Of a DNA stretch of 64,000 nt, positions 976 through 22,576 are shown piece after piece. The DNA is from Escherichia coli (GTDB lineage Bacteria; Pseudomonadota; Gammaproteobacteria; Enterobacterales; Enterobacteriaceae): assembly GCF_022846255.1 (NCBI RefSeq), contig NZ_AP025682.1, one strand, 5' to 3'. The position numbers were made by a program, and so were the translations under genes. Below the pieces are notes generated by a model, which saw only the letters and a list, made by a program, of their open reading frames with translations, was not told the DNA's origin and made no database searches. The stretch's first letter is position 1, and each line of letters starts with the position of its first letter.

Positions 976-1051
976 TGGTGGGTCGTGCAGGATTCGAACC
1001 TGCGACCAATTGATTAAAAGTCAACTGCTCTACCAACTGAGCTAACGACCC
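976..1051 (-). tRNA. lysQ: tRNA-Lys (UUU anticodon)
   Basis: 76-nt reverse complement of GGGTCGTTAGCTCAGTTGGTAGAGCAGTTGACTTTTAATCAATTGGTCGCAGGTTCGAATCCTGCACGACCCACCA; gene name from position in the 7-tRNA operon. Confidence 0.9.
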
Positions 1052-1084
1052 CTTGCGGGATTATGCTGCTTTAATCATTCAGGA

Positions 1085-1160
1085 TGGTGGGTCGTGCAGG
1101 ATTCGAACCTGCGACCAATTGATTAAAAGTCAACTGCTCTACCAACTGAGCTAACGACCC
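1085..1160 (-). tRNA. lysZ: tRNA-Lys (UUU)
   Basis: Identical 76-nt tRNA-Lys copy. Confidence 0.9.
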
Positions 1161-1208
1161 ATACGGGTGTTACCTGAAAGATTTCTACTCGGAACCAATG
1201 TTTAAAAT

Positions 1209-1284
1209 TGGTGGGTCGTGCAGGATTCGAACCTGCGACCAATTGATTAAAAGTCAACTGCTCTACCAACTGAGCTAACGACCC
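1209..1284 (-). tRNA. lysY: tRNA-Lys (UUU)
   Basis: Identical 76-nt tRNA-Lys copy. Confidence 0.9.
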
Positions 1285-1287
1285 GAG

Positions 1288-1363
1288 TGGTGGGTGATGA
1301 CGGGATCGAACCGCCGACCCCCTCCTTGTAAGGGAGGTGCTCTCCCAGCTGAGCTAATCACCC
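1288..1363 (-). tRNA. valZ: tRNA-Val (UAC)
   Basis: Reverse complement of GGGTGATTAGCTCAGCTGGGAGAGCACCTCCCTTACAAGGAGGGGGTCGGCGGTTCGATCCCGTCATCACCCACCA. Confidence 0.9.
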
Positions 1364-1414
1364 GATACTGCGCTGGATACTACAAACTACTTCCACCGAA
1401 CCCACCGTAATCAG

Positions 1415-1490
1415 TGGTGGGTCGTGCAGGATTCGAACCTGCGACCAATTGATTAAAAGTCAACTGCTCTACCAACTGAGCTAACGACCC
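1415..1490 (-). tRNA. lysW: tRNA-Lys (UUU)
   Basis: Identical 76-nt tRNA-Lys copy. Confidence 0.9.
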
Positions 1491-1492
1491 GG

Positions 1493-1568
1493 TGGTGGGT
1501 GATGACGGGATCGAACCGCCGACCCCCTCCTTGTAAGGGAGGTGCTCTCCCAGCTGAGCTAATCACCC
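1493..1568 (-). tRNA. valT: tRNA-Val (UAC)
   Basis: Second tRNA-Val copy, 2 nt after lysW. Confidence 0.9.
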
Positions 1569-1603
1569 GATACTACGCTGGATACTACAACTAACTATGT
1601 TAG

Positions 1604-1679
1604 TGGTGGGTCGTGCAGGATTCGAACCTGCGACCAATTGATTAAAAGTCAACTGCTCTACCAACTGAGCTAACGACCC
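1604..1679 (-). tRNA. lysT: tRNA-Lys (UUU)
   Basis: First tRNA of the operon on the minus strand; identical tRNA-Lys sequence. Confidence 0.9.
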
Positions 1680-1843: not shown

Positions 1844-2635
1844 TTACATCGCGTTCAGACGTTTTTGCGCCTGTTTAGCGCCATCAGTACCAGGGTATTT
1901 ACTGATAACCTGCTGGTATACGGCTTTCGCTTTTGCGGTGTCACCTTTGTCCTGCATGATGACGCCGACTTTAAACATCGCATCTGCAGCCTTCGGTGAC
2001 TTCGGATAGTTTTTCACTACCGAAGCAAAATAATACGCCGCATCATCTTTTTTACCCTTGTTGTAGTTTAACTGACCCAGCCAATAATTGGCGTTTGGCA
2101 GGTAAGTTGAATCAGGGTAATTTTTGATGAAATTCTGAAATGCCACCATTGCGTCATCCTGGCGGGATTTATCCTGCACCAGCGCAATAGCTGCATTGTA
2201 ATCCGTGTTTGCATCACCGCTTTTCACCGGCGCGCCAGCATTCGCAGTACCAGCATCAGCTGTCGGCGTCGTTGATGCCGCCACACCGCTTTGATCGCCG
2301 CTGGTTGATTGCGCCGCTGCACCACCGCTGCTGAGGCTGTCGATCTGCAACAGGATCTGCTTTTGCCGCTCCACGACCTGATTCAGTTGATACTGATTTT
2401 CCTGAATCTGACCACGCAGGGAATCAATATCGGATTGATTATCAGAGAGTTGTTGCTGGAGTTGGGTTAAAAGCTGGCTGTGAGCATTAGAAATACGCTC
2501 AAGTTGAGTGACGCGGTCTTCGACCGAGCCTGAGCCGACACTACTGATTGGTGCCTGAGCAAAAGCGGCCCAGGGGGCCGCTATACCAACCAGTAACGAC
2601 AGACTCAATAGTTGATGTCTGAAGTTACTGCTCAT
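1844..2635 (-). CDS. cpoB: Cell division coordinator CpoB (YbgF), TPR periplasmic protein
   Basis: 263-aa ORF; translation matches remembered CpoB, last gene of tol-pal cluster. Confidence 0.95.
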   Translation of the reverse strand: MSSNFRHQLLSLSLLVGIAAPWAAFAQAPISSVGSGSVEDRVTQLERISNAHSQLLTQLQQQLSDNQSDIDSLRGQIQENQYQLNQVVERQKQILLQIDSLSSGGAAAQSTSGDQSGVAASTTPTADAGTANAGAPVKSGDANTDYNAAIALVQDKSRQDDAMVAFQNFIKNYPDSTYLPNANYWLGQLNYNKGKKDDAAYYFASVVKNYPKSPKAADAMFKVGVIMQDKGDTAKAKAVYQQVISKYPGTDGAKQAQKRLNAM

Positions 2636-2644
2636 GCAATTCTC

Positions 2645-3190
<546 letters not shown>

Positions 3191-4625: not shown

Positions 4626-5891
4626 TTACGGTTTGAAGTCCAATGGCGCGTTTTTGAACACTTCATATACTGCCTGGCTTGGTGGTTTCGGGATCTTCGC
4701 AAGTTTAGCTGCTGCCAACGCAGCCTGACAAAGTGCGGGATCGCCACCTTCAGGTTTGATATCCAGTAACATACCATCGGGTGCCAGTTTTATGCGCAGC
4801 GTACAGGTTTTGCCTGCATAGGACGATGCGTCATAGAACTTACTTTCGATAGCAGATTTAATCTGCCCGGCATAGTTATTGATATCGGCCCCTGATGCGC
4901 CATTGTTTTTAGTATTACCACTCCCGGCTGGCGAAGCATTGTTCCCTTTCGCCCCTCCCCCCGTTTTCGGTGCATTCTTACCAGAGCTTAGCTCACCGAA
5001 AATATCATCTGCCTCTGCGGCAGCTTTTGCTGCAGCGGCTTTTTCAGCTGCTGCTTTTGCCGCTGCCGCTTTTTTGTCTGCGGCGGCTTTTTCTGCCGCT
5101 GCTTTCTTATCAGCTGCTGCCTTTTCAGCAGCCGCTTTTTCTGCTGCTTTTTTGTCGGCTGCCGCTTTCTCTGCTGCCGCTTTCTTATCAGCTGCAGCCT
5201 TTTCAGCAGCCGCTTTCTTCTCAGCTTCTGCTTTGGCTTTTTCAGCAGCTTCAGTTGCCGCTTTCTTTCTTGCTTCAGCTGCAGCTGCTTCTGCCGCTTC
5301 CGCTTTCTTCTTCAGTGCCGCCGCGGCTGCCTCGGCTTTTTTCTGCGCTTCGGCTGCGGCTTTGGCGGCTTCTGCTTCTGCTTTTTTCTTCGCGTCTGCA
5401 GCCGCTTTCTTCGCTGCTTCTTCCGCAGCTTTTGCATCCGCTTCAGCCTTCGCTTTAGCATCTGCCGCCGCTTTCGCTGCCGCTTCTTCCGCTTGCTTCT
5501 GCTTTAACTCGGCCTGTTTTGCGGCTTCTTCAGCCTGCTTTTTCTGTTCCTGAGCCGCTAACCGCTCTTTCTCAAGTTGCTTCAGGCGTTCCTGTTCAGC
5601 CGCTTGTTTCTCACGCAGTTCTTCAGCAGCCTGCTGTTCCTTCATCTTGCGCTGCTCATCAGAACGCTTCGCGCTTGATTCCTGGCTTTGCATGCGTTTG
5701 TACTGCTCAACTACCGCACCTGAATCAACCATGACAGCGTCGATGGACGAACCACCGCCGCCTCCGGCTGAAGCTTCTATATTCTCATCGAACGAACTCC
5801 AGATCAGCGCCGCAAATAAGATGACATGCAGCACTGCTGAAATAATTATCGCCCGTTTGAGCTTGTCGTTTTGTTCGGTTGCCTTTGACAC
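4626..5891 (-). CDS. tolA: Tol-Pal system protein TolA
   Basis: 421-aa ORF with N-terminal TM segment, long Ala/Lys/Glu-rich helical domain II and C-terminal domain III. Confidence 0.95.
   Translation of the reverse strand: MSKATEQNDKLKRAIIISAVLHVILFAALIWSSFDENIEASAGGGGGSSIDAVMVDSGAVVEQYKRMQSQESSAKRSDEQRKMKEQQAAEELREKQAAEQERLKQLEKERLAAQEQKKQAEEAAKQAELKQKQAEEAAAKAAADAKAKAEADAKAAEEAAKKAAADAKKKAEAEAAKAAAEAQKKAEAAAAALKKKAEAAEAAAAEARKKAATEAAEKAKAEAEKKAAAEKAAADKKAAAEKAAADKKAAEKAAAEKAAADKKAAAEKAAADKKAAAAKAAAEKAAAAKAAAEADDIFGELSSGKNAPKTGGGAKGNNASPAGSGNTKNNGASGADINNYAGQIKSAIESKFYDASSYAGKTCTLRIKLAPDGMLLDIKPEGGDPALCQAALAAAKLAKIPKPPSQAVYEVFKNAPLDFKP
4990..5600 (-). repeat. Imperfect tandem nucleotide repeats encoding the Ala/Lys-rich TolA domain II
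   Basis: Recurring gctgc(c/a)gc.. ttt(c/t)t.. units on the plus strand; protein repeats of KAAAEKAAADKKAAA type. Confidence 0.8.
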
Positions 5892-15494: not shown

Positions 15495-15534
15495 GTGTTC
15501 TGTCCATCCTTCAGTAATCGTTATCTTTTAAACC

Positions 15535-15565
15535 GTAGACCGACACCCTATCCACGTCGGTCTAC
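15535..15565 (-). other. Intra-operon stem-loop in the sucB-sucC intergenic spacer (10-bp perfect stem)
   Basis: gtagaccgac / gtcggtctac with 11-nt loop, seen directly. Confidence 0.45.
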
Positions 15566-15587
15566 AGTGCAGGTGAAGCTTAAACTA

Positions 15588-16805
15588 CTAAACGTCCAGC
15601 AGCAGACGCGTCGGATCTTCCAGCAACTCTTTGATCGTTACAAGGAAGCCCACGGATTCGCGACCATCGATCAAACGGTGATCGTAGGACAGCGCCAGGT
15701 ACATCATCGGCAGGATCTCAACCTGACCATTCACTGCCATCGGACGATCTTTGATAGCGTGCATACCCAGAATTGCGCTCTGCGGTGGGTTGATGATAGG
15801 CGTTGACATCAGGGAACCGAACACACCACCGTTGGTGATGGTGAAGTTACCACCGGTCAGATCTTCAACCGTCAGCTTGCCGTCACGGCCTTTAACTGCC
15901 AGCTCTTTGATTTTCTTCTCGATGTCTGCCATGCCTAGGGTATCGACATCACGCAGTACTGGCGTCACCAGGCCGCGCGGCGTAGAAACCGCCATGCTGA
16001 CGTCGAAATAGTTGTGGTAAACCACATCATCGCCGTCGATAGACGCGTTCACTTCCGGGTAACGTTTCAGGGCTTCAACCACCGCTTTCACGTAGAAGGA
16101 CATAAAGCCCAGACGGATGCCATGACGTTTTTCAAACGCTTCACCGTACTGCTTACGCAGATCCATAATCGGCTTCATGTTGACTTCGTTGAACGTGGTC
16201 AGCATAGCGGTGGAGTTTTTCGCTTCCAGCAGACGCTCTGCCACACGCTTACGCAGGCGAGTCATCGGGACACGTTTTTCGCTACGTGCAGCCAGAGCCG
16301 GTTGCGCCGCCGGAGCAGCCGCTGCCGGAGCAGACTCTTTCGCCGGGGCTTTCGCCAGATGTTTTTCCACATCTTCACGGGTCAGACGACCACCCACACC
16401 CGTGCCTTTAATAGCGCTGGCGTCGAGGTTATGTTCAGCCAGCAGGCGACGGATCGCCGGGCTTAACGCATCGTTGTTTTGCTCTTCCAGAGACGCCTGC
16501 TGGCGTTGCGCCGGAGTGGACGCTTTCTCTTCAGATTTGGCGCTGGTTTCTTTACCCGCGCTGTTGCCTTCACGCAGGCGACCAAGGATCTGACGAGACG
16601 TTACCGTTGTACCTTCATCTTCCAGAACCGCATCCAGAATGCCGTCTGCTGATGCCGGTACTTCCAGTACCACTTTGTCAGTTTCGATTTCTACCAGCAC
16701 TTCATCACGTACGACTGCGTCGCCGGGTTTTTTATGCCAGGTTGCGACGGTGGCATCGGCTACGGATTCAGGCAGGTCAGGGACCAGAATATCTACGCTA
16801 CTCAT
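15588..16805 (-). CDS. sucB: 2-oxoglutarate dehydrogenase E2 (dihydrolipoyl succinyltransferase)
   Basis: 405-aa ORF with lipoyl domain and Ala/Pro linker. Confidence 0.95.
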
Positions 16806-16819
16806 TGTGTATCCTTTAT

Positions 16820-19621
16820 TTATTCGACGTTCAGCGCGTCATTAACCAGATCTTGTTGCTGTTTCTGGTGAACGGACATATACCCTACCGCCGGAGAGGC
16901 GGAGGCTGGGCGGCCTGCATAACGCAGAGAAGCCCCAAACGGAATCACTTCACGGAAATGATGCTGGCTGCAGTACCATGCGCCCTGGTTGAGCGGCTCT
17001 TCCTGGCACCAGACAAAATCCTTGACGTGAGCAAACTGCTGCAACACTTCCTGCATCGCTTTATGCGGGAACGGGTAGAGTTGCTCGATACGCACAATGG
17101 CGACATCGTGTTGATTGTTCTTACGACGTTGTTCCAGCAGGTCGTAATAAACCTTACCAGAACACATCACTACGCGCTTCACGCCCTTCGGATCAAGCTC
17201 GTCGATTTCACCGATGGCTGGCAGGAAGGTGCCGTTCGCCAGTTCTTCGAGGCTGGATACCGCCAGCGGATGACGCAGCAGGGATTTCGGCGACATCACG
17301 ACCAGTGGACGACGCATCCCGCGCAACGCCTGACGACGCAGCATGTGGTAAACCTGTGCCGGGGTAGAAGGTACGCAAACCTGCATGTTTTGCTCAGCGC
17401 AAAGTTGCAGATAACGTTCCAGACGCGCGGAGGAGTGCTCCGGCCCCTGCCCTTCGTAACCGTGCGGCAGCAACATCACCAGGCCACACATCCGGCCCCA
17501 TTTCTGTTCGCCAGAGGAGATGAACTGGTCGATAACCACCTGTGCACCGTTGGCGAAGTCACCGAACTGTGCTTCCCAGATGGTCAGGGTACGTGGTTCT
17601 GCGGTGGCATAACCGTATTCAAACGCCAGTACGGCTTCTTCAGACAGTACAGAGTCCCAGACGCGGAACGCGCCCTGGCCGTTATGGATATGTTGCAGCG
17701 GCGTGTAAGTGGAACCGTTAGACTGGTTGTGGATCACCGCGTGGCGGTGGAAGAAGGTACCGCGACCGGAGTCTTCACCCGACAGGCGAACCGGAATGCC
17801 TTCGTCAACCAGCGTGGCGTAAGCGAGGTTTTCCGCGCCGCCCCAGTCGAACAGTTTCTCACCGGCAGCCATTGCCTGGCGATCGCCATAAATCTTGGCA
17901 ACGCGAGACTGCATTTCAACCGCTTCCGGCACCGTGCTGATGCGTTTAGCCAGTTCCTGCAGGCGCTTCATCTCAACTTTGTTCGGGTACTCTTCGTCCC
18001 ATTCGTGGTTGAGGTACGGCGACCAGGTGAAAGAGTGCATGTTCATCGGACGCCACTCTGCTACAACGCAATCGCCAGCATCCAGCGCATCGCGGTACAG
18101 GTTAACCATCTCGGTGGCATCTTCCAGCGTCGCGACTTTTTCCTGCTCCAGCTTGTCAGCGTAGATTTTGCGCGGCGTCGGATGTTTTTTGATTTTCTGA
18201 TACATCAGCGGCTGGGTTGCGCTCGGCTCGTCGGCTTCGTTGTGGCCGTGACGGCGGTAGCACACCAGATCGATGAAGACATCACGTTTAAAGGTGTTAC
18301 GGAAATCGAGCGCCAGACGGGTCACAAAGGCAACGGCTTCCGGATCATCCGCATTAACGTGGAAAATCGGTGCCTGTACCATCTTGCCGATATCAGTACA
18401 GTACGGCGTAGAACGGGCATCCAGCGGGTTAGAGGTGGTGAAGCCAACCTGGTTGTTGATAACGATACGTACCGTACCGCCAACTTCATAACCACGCGCT
18501 TTCGACATGTTCAGGGTTTCCTGAACTACGCCCTGCCCGGTCACTGCGGCGTCACCATGAATGGTGATTGGCAGCACTTTGTTGCTGCTCGGCTCATCAA
18601 GTCTGTCCAGACGGGCACGAACAGAACCGATAACGACCGGGCTTACAATCTCAAGGTGAGACGGGTTAAACGCCAGCGCCAGGTGAACCAGGCCGCCATC
18701 GGTCTGGAAGTCAGACGAGAAGCCCATGTGGTATTTCACGTCGCCCGTGCCGAGGTGTTCTTTATGTTTACCGGCAAACTCGTCGAACAAGTCTTGCGGT
18801 TTTTTACCCAGCACGTTCACCAGAACGTTCAGACGACCACGGTGCGCCATCCCGAGAACCACTTCGCGTGTGCCGCTGTTGCCAGCGTGGCGGATCATCT
18901 CTTTAAGCATCGGGATTAACGCGTCACCGCCTTCCAGCGAGAAGCGTTTTGCGCCAGGGAATTTTGCGCCAAGGTAACGTTCAAGGCCTTCAGCGGCGGT
19001 CAGTTCGCTTAAGAAGCGTTTTTTCTCTTCGCTATTGAAAGTCGCGCGACCAGACTCAATACGCTGTTGGATCCAGCGTTTTTCTTCAGTGCTGGTAATG
19101 TGCATATACTCGGCACCAATCGGGCCGCAGTAGGTTTGCTTGAGTGCTTCCAGCAGTTCGCCGAGTTTCATGGTTTCTTTGCCGCTGGCAAATGAACCGA
19201 CGTTGAAGGTCTCCTGGAAGTCTGCTTCGGTCAGATCGTGGAAAGACGGATCCAGATCGGCCACTTTATCTTGCTGCCACAGTCCCAGCGGATCGAGATT
19301 CGCATGCTGGTGACCACGGAAGCGGTATGCGTTAATGAGCTGCAGGACTTTAACCTGCTTCACATTGGTGTCAGGGTCGGAGATCGTTGAAGAGTAACGT
19401 GAAGCGTCTTTCGCCAGGCGGCGGAAATATTCACGCGTTTGAGAGTGGAATTGATCCGGTTTGACTCCCGTACCAGGTAACTGCTGGAACGTCGAACGCC
19501 AGTTAGCGTCAACCGAGTCAGGATCGGTTAAGAAGTCTTCATAGAGCTGTTCTATCCAGCTCTGGTTTGCGCCAGAGAGGTAAGAAGAGTCCAACCAGGC
19601 TTTCAAAGCGCTGTTCTGCAT
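16820..19621 (-). CDS. sucA: 2-oxoglutarate dehydrogenase E1
   Basis: 933-aa [37 protein letters not shown]. Confidence 0.95.
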
Positions 19622-19794
19622 CGTGATCCCTTAAGCATCTTTTTTATGCTTACTTCGCCGTGGATACTACCACGCACATTTCATATCTGATGTGCGTGCC
19701 GGGGTTCACTTGTTGCGGACTTGTCGTGTTTTCTGCGTCCGCTAAGGAACCTTTAAAAACTGTCTTAGTGTCAGGGGCAGTTTTTAAAGATTTC

Positions 19795-20075
19795 CTGCAT
19801 TTCTTTTGTAGGCCGGATAAGGCATTCACGCCGCATCCGGCGCTGTTTGCCTGATGCGACGCTTGCGCGTCTTATCAGGCCTACGGTTTCTGCATTTCTT
19901 TTGTAGGCCGGATAAGGCGTTCACGCCGCATCCGGCACTGGTTGCCTGATGCGACGCTTGTGCGTCTTATCAGGCCTACGGTTTCTGCATTTCTTTTGTA
20001 GGCCGGATAAGGCGTTCACGCCGCATCCGGCACTGGTTGCCTGATGCGACGCTTGCGCGTCTTATCAGGCCTACG
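19795..20075. repeat. Three tandem REP/BIME-type palindromic units between sucA and sdhB
   Basis: Near-identical ~98-bp units containing gccggataaggcgttcacgccgcatccggc and gatgcgacgcttgcgcgtcttatcaggcctac. Confidence 0.85.
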
Positions 20076-20077
20076 GT

Positions 20078-20794
20078 TTACGCATTACGTTGCAACAACA
20101 TCGACTTGATATGGCCGATGGCGCGCGTCGGGTTCAGCCCCTTCGGACATACACTGACGCAGTTCATGATGCTGTGACAGCGGAATACACTGAATGCATC
20201 GCTCAAACCGTCGAGGCGGCTGTCAGTCTCGGTATCACGGCTATCGATCAGGAAACGATATGCCGCTAACAAGCCTGCCGGGCCGATAAACTTATCGGGA
20301 TTCCACCAGAAAGACGGACAAGAGGTTGAACAACATGCGCAGAGAATACATTCATACAACCCGTCGAGTTTTTCGCGCTGCTCTGGCATCTGTAAATGCT
20401 CGCGAGCTGGCGGATTTTGTCCATTATTCAACAGGTAAGGTTTAATTTTCTCATATTGCGCATAGAATTGTCCCATGTCTACCACCAAATCGCGGATCAC
20501 CGGTAAACCTGGCAGCGGGCGAATCACAATCTTCTTGCCCGGCTGGTTGAGTGCCGAAATCGGGGTAATACAGGCCAGACCATTCTTACCGTTCATGTTC
20601 AGACCGTCGGAACCGCACACACCTTCACGGCAGGAGCGGCGGAACGACAGGCTGGGATCTTTCTCTTTCAGCTGAATAAGCGCATCCAGCAGCATCATGT
20701 CGCGACCTTCTTCCGCTTCCAGGGTGTAATCCTGCATACGCGGAGCATCATCAACATCCGGGTTATAGCGATAAATTGAAAACTCGAGTCTCAT
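20078..20794 (-). CDS. sdhB: Succinate dehydrogenase iron-sulfur subunit
   Basis: 238-aa ORF with Cys clusters. Confidence 0.95.
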   Translation of the reverse strand: MRLEFSIYRYNPDVDDAPRMQDYTLEAEEGRDMMLLDALIQLKEKDPSLSFRRSCREGVCGSDGLNMNGKNGLACITPISALNQPGKKIVIRPLPGLPVIRDLVVDMGQFYAQYEKIKPYLLNNGQNPPAREHLQMPEQREKLDGLYECILCACCSTSCPSFWWNPDKFIGPAGLLAAYRFLIDSRDTETDSRLDGLSDAFSVFRCHSIMNCVSVCPKGLNPTRAIGHIKSMLLQRNA

Positions 20795-20809: not shown

Positions 20810-22576
20810 TTAGTAAGTACGAATCTTCGGCGGGAATGCCGGGCGCAGTTTCGGTTCCATGTTGACGCTTCGGCGCGTCATGGATTCCGACTCTGGCAGA
20901 TACAGGGAGTGGCACAGCCAGTTTTCATCATCGCGATCCGGGAAGTCGAAGCGGCTATGCGCGCCACGGCTTTCGGTACGGAAGTTGGCAGAAACAGCCG
21001 TTGCATACGCCGTTTCCATCAGGTTATCCAGTTCCAGGCACTCAACGCGCTGCGTGTTGAACTCGCTGGAAGTGTCATCCAGACGGGCATTTTTCAGACG
21101 CTCGCGGATAACTTTCAACTGCTCAAGCCCTTTCGCCATCGCATCACCTTCACGGAAGACCGAGAAGTTATGCTGCATACATTCTTGCAGTGCTTTACGG
21201 ATCGCCACCGGATCTTCACCGTTACGGTTATTGTTCCAGCGGTTCAGGCGATCCAGAGACGCTTCTACATCAGACTCGCTGGCATCGCGCAGTGCGCCCT
21301 GCTCGGCGATAGACTCTTGCAGATGCAGACCTGCCGCACGACCAAATACGACCAGGTCCAGCAGCGAGTTGCCGCCCAGACGGTTAGCGCCATGTACCGA
21401 TACACAAGCGATTTCACCAACGGCAAACAGCCCCGGAACAACCACATCTTCGCCTTTCTCATTCACCGTCAGCGCCTGACCGGTCACTTTGGTCGGAATA
21501 CCGCCCATCATGTAGTGACAGGTTGGGATAACCGGAATCGGCTCTTTCACCGGATCGACGTGAGCGAAGGTACGGGAGAGTTCCAGAATACCCGGCAGAC
21601 GGGATTCGAGAACTTCTTTCCCCAGATGGTCAAGTTTCAGTTTTGCGTGTGGCCCCCACGGACCATCACAACCGCGACCTTCACGGATTTCGATCATGAT
21701 GGAACGCGCCACCACGTCACGGCCCGCCAGGTCTTTGGCGTTCGGCGCATAACGTTCCATAAAGCGTTCGCCATGTTTGTTCAGCAGATAACCGCCTTCA
21801 CCACGGCAACCTTCGGTGACCAGTACGCCCGCACCGGCAATACCGGTCGGGTGGAACTGCCACATTTCCATATCCTGTACCGGTACGCCTGCACGGATAG
21901 CCATGCCGACACCGTCGCCAGTGTTAATGTGGGCGTTAGTGGTGGACTGATAAATACGCCCTGCCCCGCCAGTCGCCAGCACTGTCGCGCGAGCTTTAAA
22001 GTAAACCACTTCACCAGTTTCGATGCACAGTGCGGTACAACCGACCACTGCGCCATCCTGGTTTTTCACCAGATCCAGCGCATACCACTCGGAGAAAATG
22101 GTGGTGTGGTTTTTCAGGTTCTGCTGATAAAGGGTGTGCAACAGTGCGTGACCGGTACGGTCGGCAGCCGCCGCAGTACGTGCCGCCTGCTCGCCGCCGA
22201 AGTTTTTCGACTGACCGCCAAACGGACGTTGATAGATACGACCATCATCAAGACGCGAGAACGGCAGGCCCATATGTTCCAGTTCCAGAATCGCTTCCGG
22301 CCCGGTTTTACACATATATTCAATCGCGTCCTGGTCACCGATATAGTCCGACCCTTTTACGGTGTCGTACATATGCCATTCCCAGTTATCTTCATGGGTA
22401 TTACCCAGCGCAACGGTAATACCACCTTGCGCAGAAACGGTATGGGAACGGGTCGGGAAGACTTTAGAGAGCAGCGCACAGGTCTGGCCACTCTGGGAAA
22501 TTTGCAGCGCCGCGCGCATACCTGCGCCGCCAGCACCAATCACAACTGCATCAAATTCTCTGACTGGCAATTTCAT
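20810..22576 (-). CDS. sdhA: Succinate dehydrogenase flavoprotein subunit
   Basis: Start taken at [19 protein letters not shown] (FAD motif); ATG overlaps sdhD stop. Confidence 0.95.

Follow-up and report, generated by a model that had tools for sequence, protein, structure and literature searches.

REP elements and the BIME-2 arrays built from them, with their copy polymorphism and their stabilizer, attenuator and gyrase roles, have been described since the 1980s-1990s. In work from Newbury et al. in 1987 and Stern et al. in 1988, the intercistronic REPs of malE-malF and hisJ-hisQ reportedly blocked 3'-to-5' exonucleases and raised upstream expression. These classical stabilizers lie in other operons and usually comprise one or two REPs, whereas the locus described here carries a tandem array. 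An E. coli REP is a 30-40-nt imperfect palindrome with GTAG 5' of the stem foot, and binding and cleavage by TnpA-REP need both the GTAG and a two-base stem mismatch (PMC3333891). In a BIME-2, an inverted z2 and y REP are joined by a short inner S linker; tandem copies are alike within a locus, linkers differ in length and sequence, and the number of units differs between strains (PMC3333891). Inverted REP pairs with GTAG and a stem mismatch, as found here, are also the form of the REPIN/RAYT systems (Pseudomonas REPINs, E. coli TnpA-REP), although local duplication, not transposition, accounts for the growth of our array.

REP325, in the yjdM-yjdN spacer (naRNA1-6), resembles our locus in being an intra-operon tandem BIME-2 located 3' of a cistron, with nearly identical y and z2 hairpins. 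It consists of six 77-bp units plus spacer and has a 13-nt inner linker, compared with 7 nt here. Our units run from z2 to y relative to transcription, which is the complement of the orientation of naRNA4, itself one Y-l-Z2 unit of REP325 (PMC4550694). A preprint (10.64898/2026.03.23.713779) reports that the upstream mRNA of yjdMN is stabilized by REP325 and the downstream mRNA attenuated ~8-10-fold, in part through Rho, and that the element yields a ladder of hairpin-ended RNAs.

The spacer itself has been studied in K-12. A read-through transcript of sdhCDAB-sucABCD, ~10 kb long, is reported for that strain (Miyakoshi 2019, 2022; Conway 2014, all citing Cunningham & Guest 1998), in agreement with an earlier note on the DNA analyzed here, which had placed sdh and suc on one transcript. 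Also reported for the K-12 spacer are an internal terminator with partial read-through, a secondary promoter (PMC4161252) and RNase III sites, for which Gordon 2017 gives the coordinate 758515. This coordinate corresponds to position 110 of the K-12 spacer and falls within its short third REP, where read mapping is ambiguous because of the repeats.

The window, by which we mean the whole 64-kb stretch of E. coli DNA under analysis, shares this locus and its flanks with K-12 MG1655 (REPs at NC_000913.3 758406-758705). The first z2-S-y of MG1655 is the same as unit 1 of the window, and downstream the two are alike in the AU-rich hairpin, the GlnZ site and the sucA leader. They differ in that MG1655 has a single z2-y pair, then another linker, AAGTCATTACCC, and then a z1-like short REP, all within a spacer of 300 nt, whereas the window has three 95-bp units in 456 nt. 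A further BIME-2 of K-12 lies in the same operon, between sucB and sucC; it too is made of y-z2-type pairs and is polymorphic between strains, but its REPs show more degeneration and just one of its units reaches the RF02564 threshold, at 59.8 bits. That K-12 spacer is 274 bp long, with two BIME pairs between GTAGACCG and CGGTCTAC; its counterpart in the window (15495-15587) is 93 bp, with no REP and a hairpin GTAGACCGAC...GTCGGTCTAC. The REP loads of the sdhB-sucA and sucB-sucC spacers are therefore opposite in the window strain and in K-12.

The array of the window is a textbook BIME-2 and of little importance in itself: its element type, its copy-number polymorphism and the presence of REPs at this site in K-12 are all known already, and the K-12 version of the spacer has been studied. 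What we add is a count of the alleles at this locus across 5,426 genomes, evidence for local duplication, and a hairpin present at this position in six genera with its sequence family exchanged.

A three-unit BIME-2 array downstream of sdhB

The sdhCDAB-sucABCD operon occupies the minus strand of the window, with sdhA, sdhB, sucA and sucB all identified through NCBIfam equivalog or subfamily models at E values from 1e-112 to 0 (Table 1). The untranslated spacer between sdhB and sucA is 456 bp long (19622-20077). Tandem Repeats Finder detects a 95-bp period at 19795-20086 with 3.1 copies, 96% matches, 0 indels and a score of 542, and a repeat search likewise returns 3 copies at spacings of 95 and 95. 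When read in the register AAACC...GCAG, units 1-3 fill 19795-20079 exactly. Pairwise comparison of the units gives 1, 3 and 4 differences per 95 nt, a degree of similarity among three copies far in excess of what chance would give. The C>T change in the y stem of unit 3 gives a G-U pair in the mRNA sense, and this terminal type of unit is found in all multi-unit E. coli alleles examined.

Table 1. Features of the sdh-suc region of the window
Feature	Position	Strand	Basis or remark
sdhA	20810-22588	-	NCBIfam equivalog or subfamily model
sdhB, upstream cistron; TAA stop 20078-20080	20078-20794	-	NCBIfam NF004616, E 2e-112
BIME-2 array, three tandem 95-bp units, head-to-tail	19795-20079	-	Tandem Repeats Finder and register; initial 2 nt are the final two bases of the sdhB TAA
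Unit 1: AAACC, z2 REP, AACCAGT, y iREP, AAAAGAAATGCAG	19985-20079	-	
z2 REP of unit 1, GTAGGCCTGATAAGACGCGCAAGCGTCGCATCAGGC; GTAG begins 3 nt past the sdhB stop	20039-20074	-	Pattern search and Rfam alignment
y REP of unit 1, GTAGGCCGGATAAGGCGTTCACGCCGCATCCGGC	19998-20031	+	Pattern search and Rfam alignment
Unit 2: one G>A relative to unit 1, in the z2 loop	19890-19984	-	
z2 REP of unit 2	19944-19979	-	Pattern search
y REP of unit 2	19903-19936	+	Pattern search
Unit 3, sucA-proximal: two S-linker changes and one C>T in the y stem	19795-19889	-	
z2 REP of unit 3	19849-19884	-	Pattern search
y REP of unit 3	19808-19841	+	Pattern search
AU-rich long hairpin GGAAAUCUUUAAAAACUG...CAGUUUUUAAAGGUUCC, ~19 bp	19746-19795	-	Inverted repeat, folds; adjoins the array on its mRNA 3' side
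GlnZ-complementary AUCCACGGCGAA in the sucA leader, downstream of the array	19654-19665	-	Compared with published seed UUGCCGUGGAAA (PMC9731577); conserved here
sucA, downstream cistron	16820-19621	-	NCBIfam TIGR00239, E 0
sucB	15588-16805	-	NCBIfam equivalog or subfamily model

In the mRNA sense each unit reads AAACC, GTAGGCCTGATAAGACGCGCAAGCGTCGCATCAGGC (36 nt), AACCAGT (7 nt), GCCGGATGCGGCGTGAACGCCTTATCCGGCCTAC (34 nt) and AAAAGAAATGCAG. The minus strand thus holds three z2 REPs of 36 nt and the plus strand three y REPs of 34 nt, all of which start with GTAGGCC and fold into a foot of 7 bp, a 2x2 internal AA/GC loop, an upper stem of 4-5 bp and a tetraloop. Each has the GTAG, the palindrome and the stem mismatch of an E. 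coli REP, the site is extragenic, and such sequences are present in many copies per genome: an 801-bp query matches at least 8-50 places in each genome, with a median of at least 26. z2(-), 7 nt and y(+) alternate three times in like tandem copies whose number varies between strains, which shows the array to be a BIME-2 of E. coli REP elements. The head-to-head linker measures 7 nt, and the tail-to-tail linker, AAAAGAAATGCAGAAACC, measures 18 nt and is specific to the locus.

The composition of the units can also be judged against an Rfam model. RF02564 (naRNA4) matches over its whole length on the plus strand of each unit, with 79.6, 86.8 and 88.4 bits against a gathering score of 59.5, while the operon-sense strand scores 46.7-53.7 bits, below that threshold. 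Aligned with the model, the hairpins of the array hardly deviate from its Y and Z2 consensus, and the only real difference is an inner linker shorter by 6 nt. As naRNA4 is defined as a Y-l-Z2 unit of REP325, these matches are an independent test of y/z2 composition; they are evidence for that make-up and none for an sRNA gene. Automatic annotation with RF02564 would place three false sRNA genes at 19811-20071 on the plus strand.

The earlier note had described three near-identical tandem BIME/REP units of ~98 bp at 19795-20075, between sucA and sdhB. Their number and near identity agree with the repeat searches, and the BIME/REP assignment agrees with the six GTAG palindromes in z2/y pairs and the full-length RF02564 matches. 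The extent was correct within 4 nt, the true limits being 19795-20079, and the unit length is 95 bp instead. Profiles confirm both flanking genes, with the correction that they lie on the minus strand.

We found no second array of like kind elsewhere in the 64-kb window, and a strict REP pattern search across all of it returned no REPs beyond the six of the array. Other repeats and structured elements of the window include a cluster of seven tRNA genes (979-1679, minus strand) with a ~205-bp tandem periodicity (Tandem Repeats Finder, 1209-1679) and a match to the Rfam CpoB/ybgF thermometer (2606-2744, minus strand, 153.7 bits). At 5014-5234 there are degenerate 15-78-bp repeats rich in GCTGC/GCCGC, which may belong to a tolA-like gene and encode its Ala/Lys-rich repeats.

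The array grew in place by local duplication

The linker between units records how the array arose. It reads AAAAGAAATGCAG followed by AAACC, 18 nt in all, and joins sequence from both flanks. Its opening 13 nt repeat the 3' flank, as found after the last unit (…CTACAAAAGAAATGCAG, then GAAATC), and its closing 5 nt repeat the 5' flank, as found ahead of the first (…AATGCGT, then AAACCGTAGG). Such a fused-flank linker is what is left when one BIME is duplicated in tandem along with the sequence on either side, and the joint of the duplication lies at an imperfect AATGC(GT/AG) microhomology. As the linker derives from the two flanks of this very site, the array grew in place through local tandem duplication and did not arrive as several units already joined. 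A 45-mer spanning the junction occurs at 1,835 places in 1,377 genomes, all of them chromosomal, and only where the locus has at least two units.

Allelic variation across E. coli

We searched 5,426 complete E. coli genomes with diagnostic queries and recovered three classes of allele. The most frequent is the K-12 type, with one z2-y pair and a short REP, in 2,260 genomes (~42%), among them MG1655, O157:H7 and a BL21 derivative. A second class, found in 1,761 genomes (~32%) and exemplified by O104:H4 and HS, has no REP in a spacer of 200 nt and carries at the position a small GC hairpin, GCCGGGGAAATCCCCCGGC, instead. Tandem-unit alleles make up the remaining class (1,377 genomes), with 1-4 junctions each, or 2-5 units. 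Together the classes account for 5,398 of the 5,426 genomes (99.5%), so there is hardly any overlap between them, and the linker is confined to this locus. The earlier note's statement that copy number at the site varies between strains thus holds in these genomes, where 0 to 5 units were found.

The spacer measures 349 or 361 nt with two units, the number present in an ST131 strain, 456 nt with three (the window and strain AR_0017) and 550 nt with four (ABU 83972; Nissle 1917 also has four). Among the matches listed, two spread samples gave ratios of two-, three- and four-unit alleles of 47:5:8 and 11:3:1, from which we estimate the three-unit form to be a minority allele of roughly 2-5% of genomes. 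Alleles of the same length need not have the same composition: the order of units is A-B-T in the window and B-B-T in AR_0017, the type of the sucA-proximal unit being constant. This difference indicates recurrent unequal exchange among the upstream units.

In the arrays of RIVM_C036569, ABU 83972 and E. albertii the first z2 REP has no GTAG (ACCCAGGCC or ACCCAGTCC in place of ACCGTAGGCC). From its sequence, such a stop-proximal REP would have lost recognition by TnpA-REP and retained the hairpin.

A hairpin at the same position in six genera

Scanning one genome of each species with a degenerate pattern yielded 19 loci, with the whole spacer present in 16. At the equivalent site, the type strain of E. 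albertii has four z2-y units, and units 1-3 are alike in the species-specific variants of their two linkers, AACCAGAG and AAAAGGAATGCAG. The shared variants indicate concerted evolution within the array. Salmonella arizonae, diarizonae and several Citrobacter have no REP and instead a small hairpin, GCCGGGGAAG.GATTCCCCGG, that resembles the no-REP allele of E. coli; this small-hairpin form is probably the older state. Three Citrobacter-like genomes carry an independent pair of a y REP and a short REP, and Kluyvera, Phytobacter and Kosakonia have other GC palindromes at the position.

We folded 19 spacers from Escherichia, Salmonella, Citrobacter, Kluyvera, Phytobacter and Kosakonia. A strong GC hairpin begins at most 13 nt from the sdhB stop in all 19, and the first 60 nt have folding energies of -18 to -40 kcal/mol with z-scores of -2.7 to -7.4. 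These stop-proximal hairpins belong to different families (REP, a small GCCGGGG hairpin and CCCTCTCCC palindromes). As the family differs among the spacers, it is the position that is conserved, and the sequence is interchangeable.

The AU-rich hairpin next to the array is kept in every E. coli allele. Its arms are recognizable in Salmonella, Citrobacter and Kluyvera, which have large insertions inside the loop. This hairpin is a candidate RNase III substrate and perhaps one of the published sites. Further towards sucA, the leader holds two more polymorphic hairpins 3' of the array, at 19715-19742 and 19671-19698 (minus strand). One stem reads GCGGAC...GTCCGC in the window, ABU 83972, E. albertii and S. 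arizonae and GCGAGC...GCTCGC in K-12 and the no-REP allele, with a similar form in Citrobacter FP75, and the changes on its two sides maintain pairing. The loop of the next hairpin is 8 nt longer in the window allele. Both leader-hairpin alleles appear to be old.

A probable role in the mRNA

On balance, we think it likely that this three-unit BIME-2 array, of local-duplication origin, acts mainly at the level of RNA. By analogy with REP325 and the classical REP work, its most likely function would be to provide RNA hairpins that shield the 3' end of the sdh mRNA and attenuate read-through into suc. Each unit, once transcribed, would fold into very stable hairpins of about -43 to -49 kcal/mol that may block 3'-to-5' exonucleases and so protect the 3' end of sdhCDAB after cleavage by RNase III or RNase E or after termination. 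The same hairpins may also form a leaky attenuator and reduce the read-through that reaches sucABCD, with every added unit acting as an additional barrier. At the DNA level, binding of gyrase to the y REPs would be a likely parallel property.

The position of the first hairpin, 3-7 nt and thus less than 15 nt from the stop, may in addition slow termination of SdhB translation. Liang, Rudd & Deutscher are said to have suggested in 2015 that a REP within 15 nt of a stop codon could impede translation termination.

Folding predictions are consistent with such hairpins, with z-scores of -5.5 to -8.1 for single units and -11.7 for the spacer in its entirety. Folded in the mRNA sense, a unit can adopt either one long z2:y hairpin (-46 to -49 kcal/mol) or two REP hairpins (-42.5 to -44.3 kcal/mol). 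The minimum-energy fold is the z2:y hairpin, with ~30 bp including mismatches, where we took at least about 22 bp of double-stranded RNA as the criterion for an RNase III site. The two folds are only 3-5 kcal/mol apart, and co-transcriptional folding should favor the form with two hairpins. The terminator, secondary promoter and RNase III sites published for the K-12 spacer lend further support to a role in the mRNA, as does the hairpin kept close to the sdhB stop in all 19 folded spacers.

Several observations weigh against a role in the RNA. REPs are absent from the spacer in about a third of genomes and arranged differently in the K-12-type alleles, so the array as such is dispensable and one small hairpin may suffice. 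A scan of 19400-20300 for promoters and terminators on both strands found no sigma-70-like site and no hairpin followed by a U-tract, and so lends no support to an intrinsic terminator, a plus-strand naRNA-like promoter or a location for Psuc. No clear rut-like tract, C-rich and G-poor, was found downstream in the mRNA-sense spacer, where the C/G ratio is at most 1.44. The preprint on REP325 also describes REP effects as context-dependent and terminal REPs as not generally tied to longer mRNA half-lives (10.64898/2026.03.23.713779). The small energy gap between the two folds of a unit also makes its predicted structure in the mRNA ambiguous.

Competing explanations

The best-surviving alternative, unlikely in our judgment and yet one to take seriously, is that the array is neutral or selfish, a REP at a permissive post-stop site whose unit number drifts without phenotype. 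REPs would have been spread by the REP-associated transposase and then multiplied by slippage or unequal crossing-over between the 95-bp repeats, any hairpin being sufficient for what the site needs. The coexistence of the no-REP, K-12-type and tandem classes at high frequency agrees with drift, as do the opposite REP loads of the sucB-sucC spacer in the window and K-12. The A-B-T and B-B-T arrays imply recurrent gain, loss or conversion, and a linker made of local flanks is what simple tandem duplication would leave. TnpA-REP promotes recombination and amplification of BIMEs in vitro (PMC3333891). With one third of E. coli having a single small hairpin, unit multiplicity may indeed be neutral. 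Set against this, a strong hairpin at the exact position in six genera argues that the hairpin is selected, though it is silent on multiplicity; REP325 measurably affects its own operon, and E. albertii also keeps a multi-unit array.

Another explanation, to which we give little credence, assigns the array a role in the DNA, as a transcription-independent site of gyrase binding and cleavage or a topological insulator between the halves of the operon. Both halves would be heavily transcribed, and more y REPs would mean more gyrase sites; the window array has three canonical ones. Gyrase cleavage sites are over-represented in BIME-2, preferentially at y REPs, with a signal that rises with rifampicin, and the sucB-sucC BIME-2 of K-12 is a cleavage hot spot (PMC6379681). 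BIME-2 sites also lie mostly at the borders of supercoiling regions (PMC10592627). However, Salmonella, Citrobacter and 32% of E. coli have hairpins other than REPs at the position, which fits a role in the RNA better. Gyrase and RNA hairpin roles are compatible and not mutually exclusive.

The idea that the units are naRNA4-like sRNA genes, giving discrete transcripts of ~77 nt from the plus strand that bind HU and condense the chromosome, draws on the three plus-strand RF02564 matches above threshold and is very improbable: those matches are antisense to the operon, with the sense strand below threshold, no sigma-70-like promoter was found on either strand of 19400-20300, the model is generic for y-z2 units and also matches the BIMEs of K-12, ABU 83972 and sucB-sucC, and a preprint that includes the laboratory that first described naRNA4 reports REP325 and naRNA4 to be without measurable nucleoid compaction (10.64898/2026.03.23.713779). 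We rejected sRNA-gene identity on these grounds: a generic y-z2 model, antisense matches and a disputed nucleoid function.

Implications for the sdh-suc operon

The earlier note had proposed that copy number can affect mRNA processing, mRNA stability and differential expression of sdh and suc. By analogy with REP325 and given the RNase III sites of the spacer, such an effect is plausible. A further reading, that unit number is a lineage-specific expression dial setting the ratio of succinate dehydrogenase to 2-oxoglutarate dehydrogenase, seems to us rather improbable. The dial would work through graded 3'-end protection, attenuation or RNase III processing, with z2:y duplexes as the processing sites. 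Arrays of 2-5 units are present, for example, in ST131, Nissle 1917, ABU 83972 and E. albertii, and single-hairpin or K-12-type alleles in K-12, O157:H7 and O104:H4.

The site is a convenient natural allelic series for asking if expression within an operon is tuned by how many REP units it holds. If unit number does act as such a dial, the array would contribute to metabolic differences between E. coli lineages.
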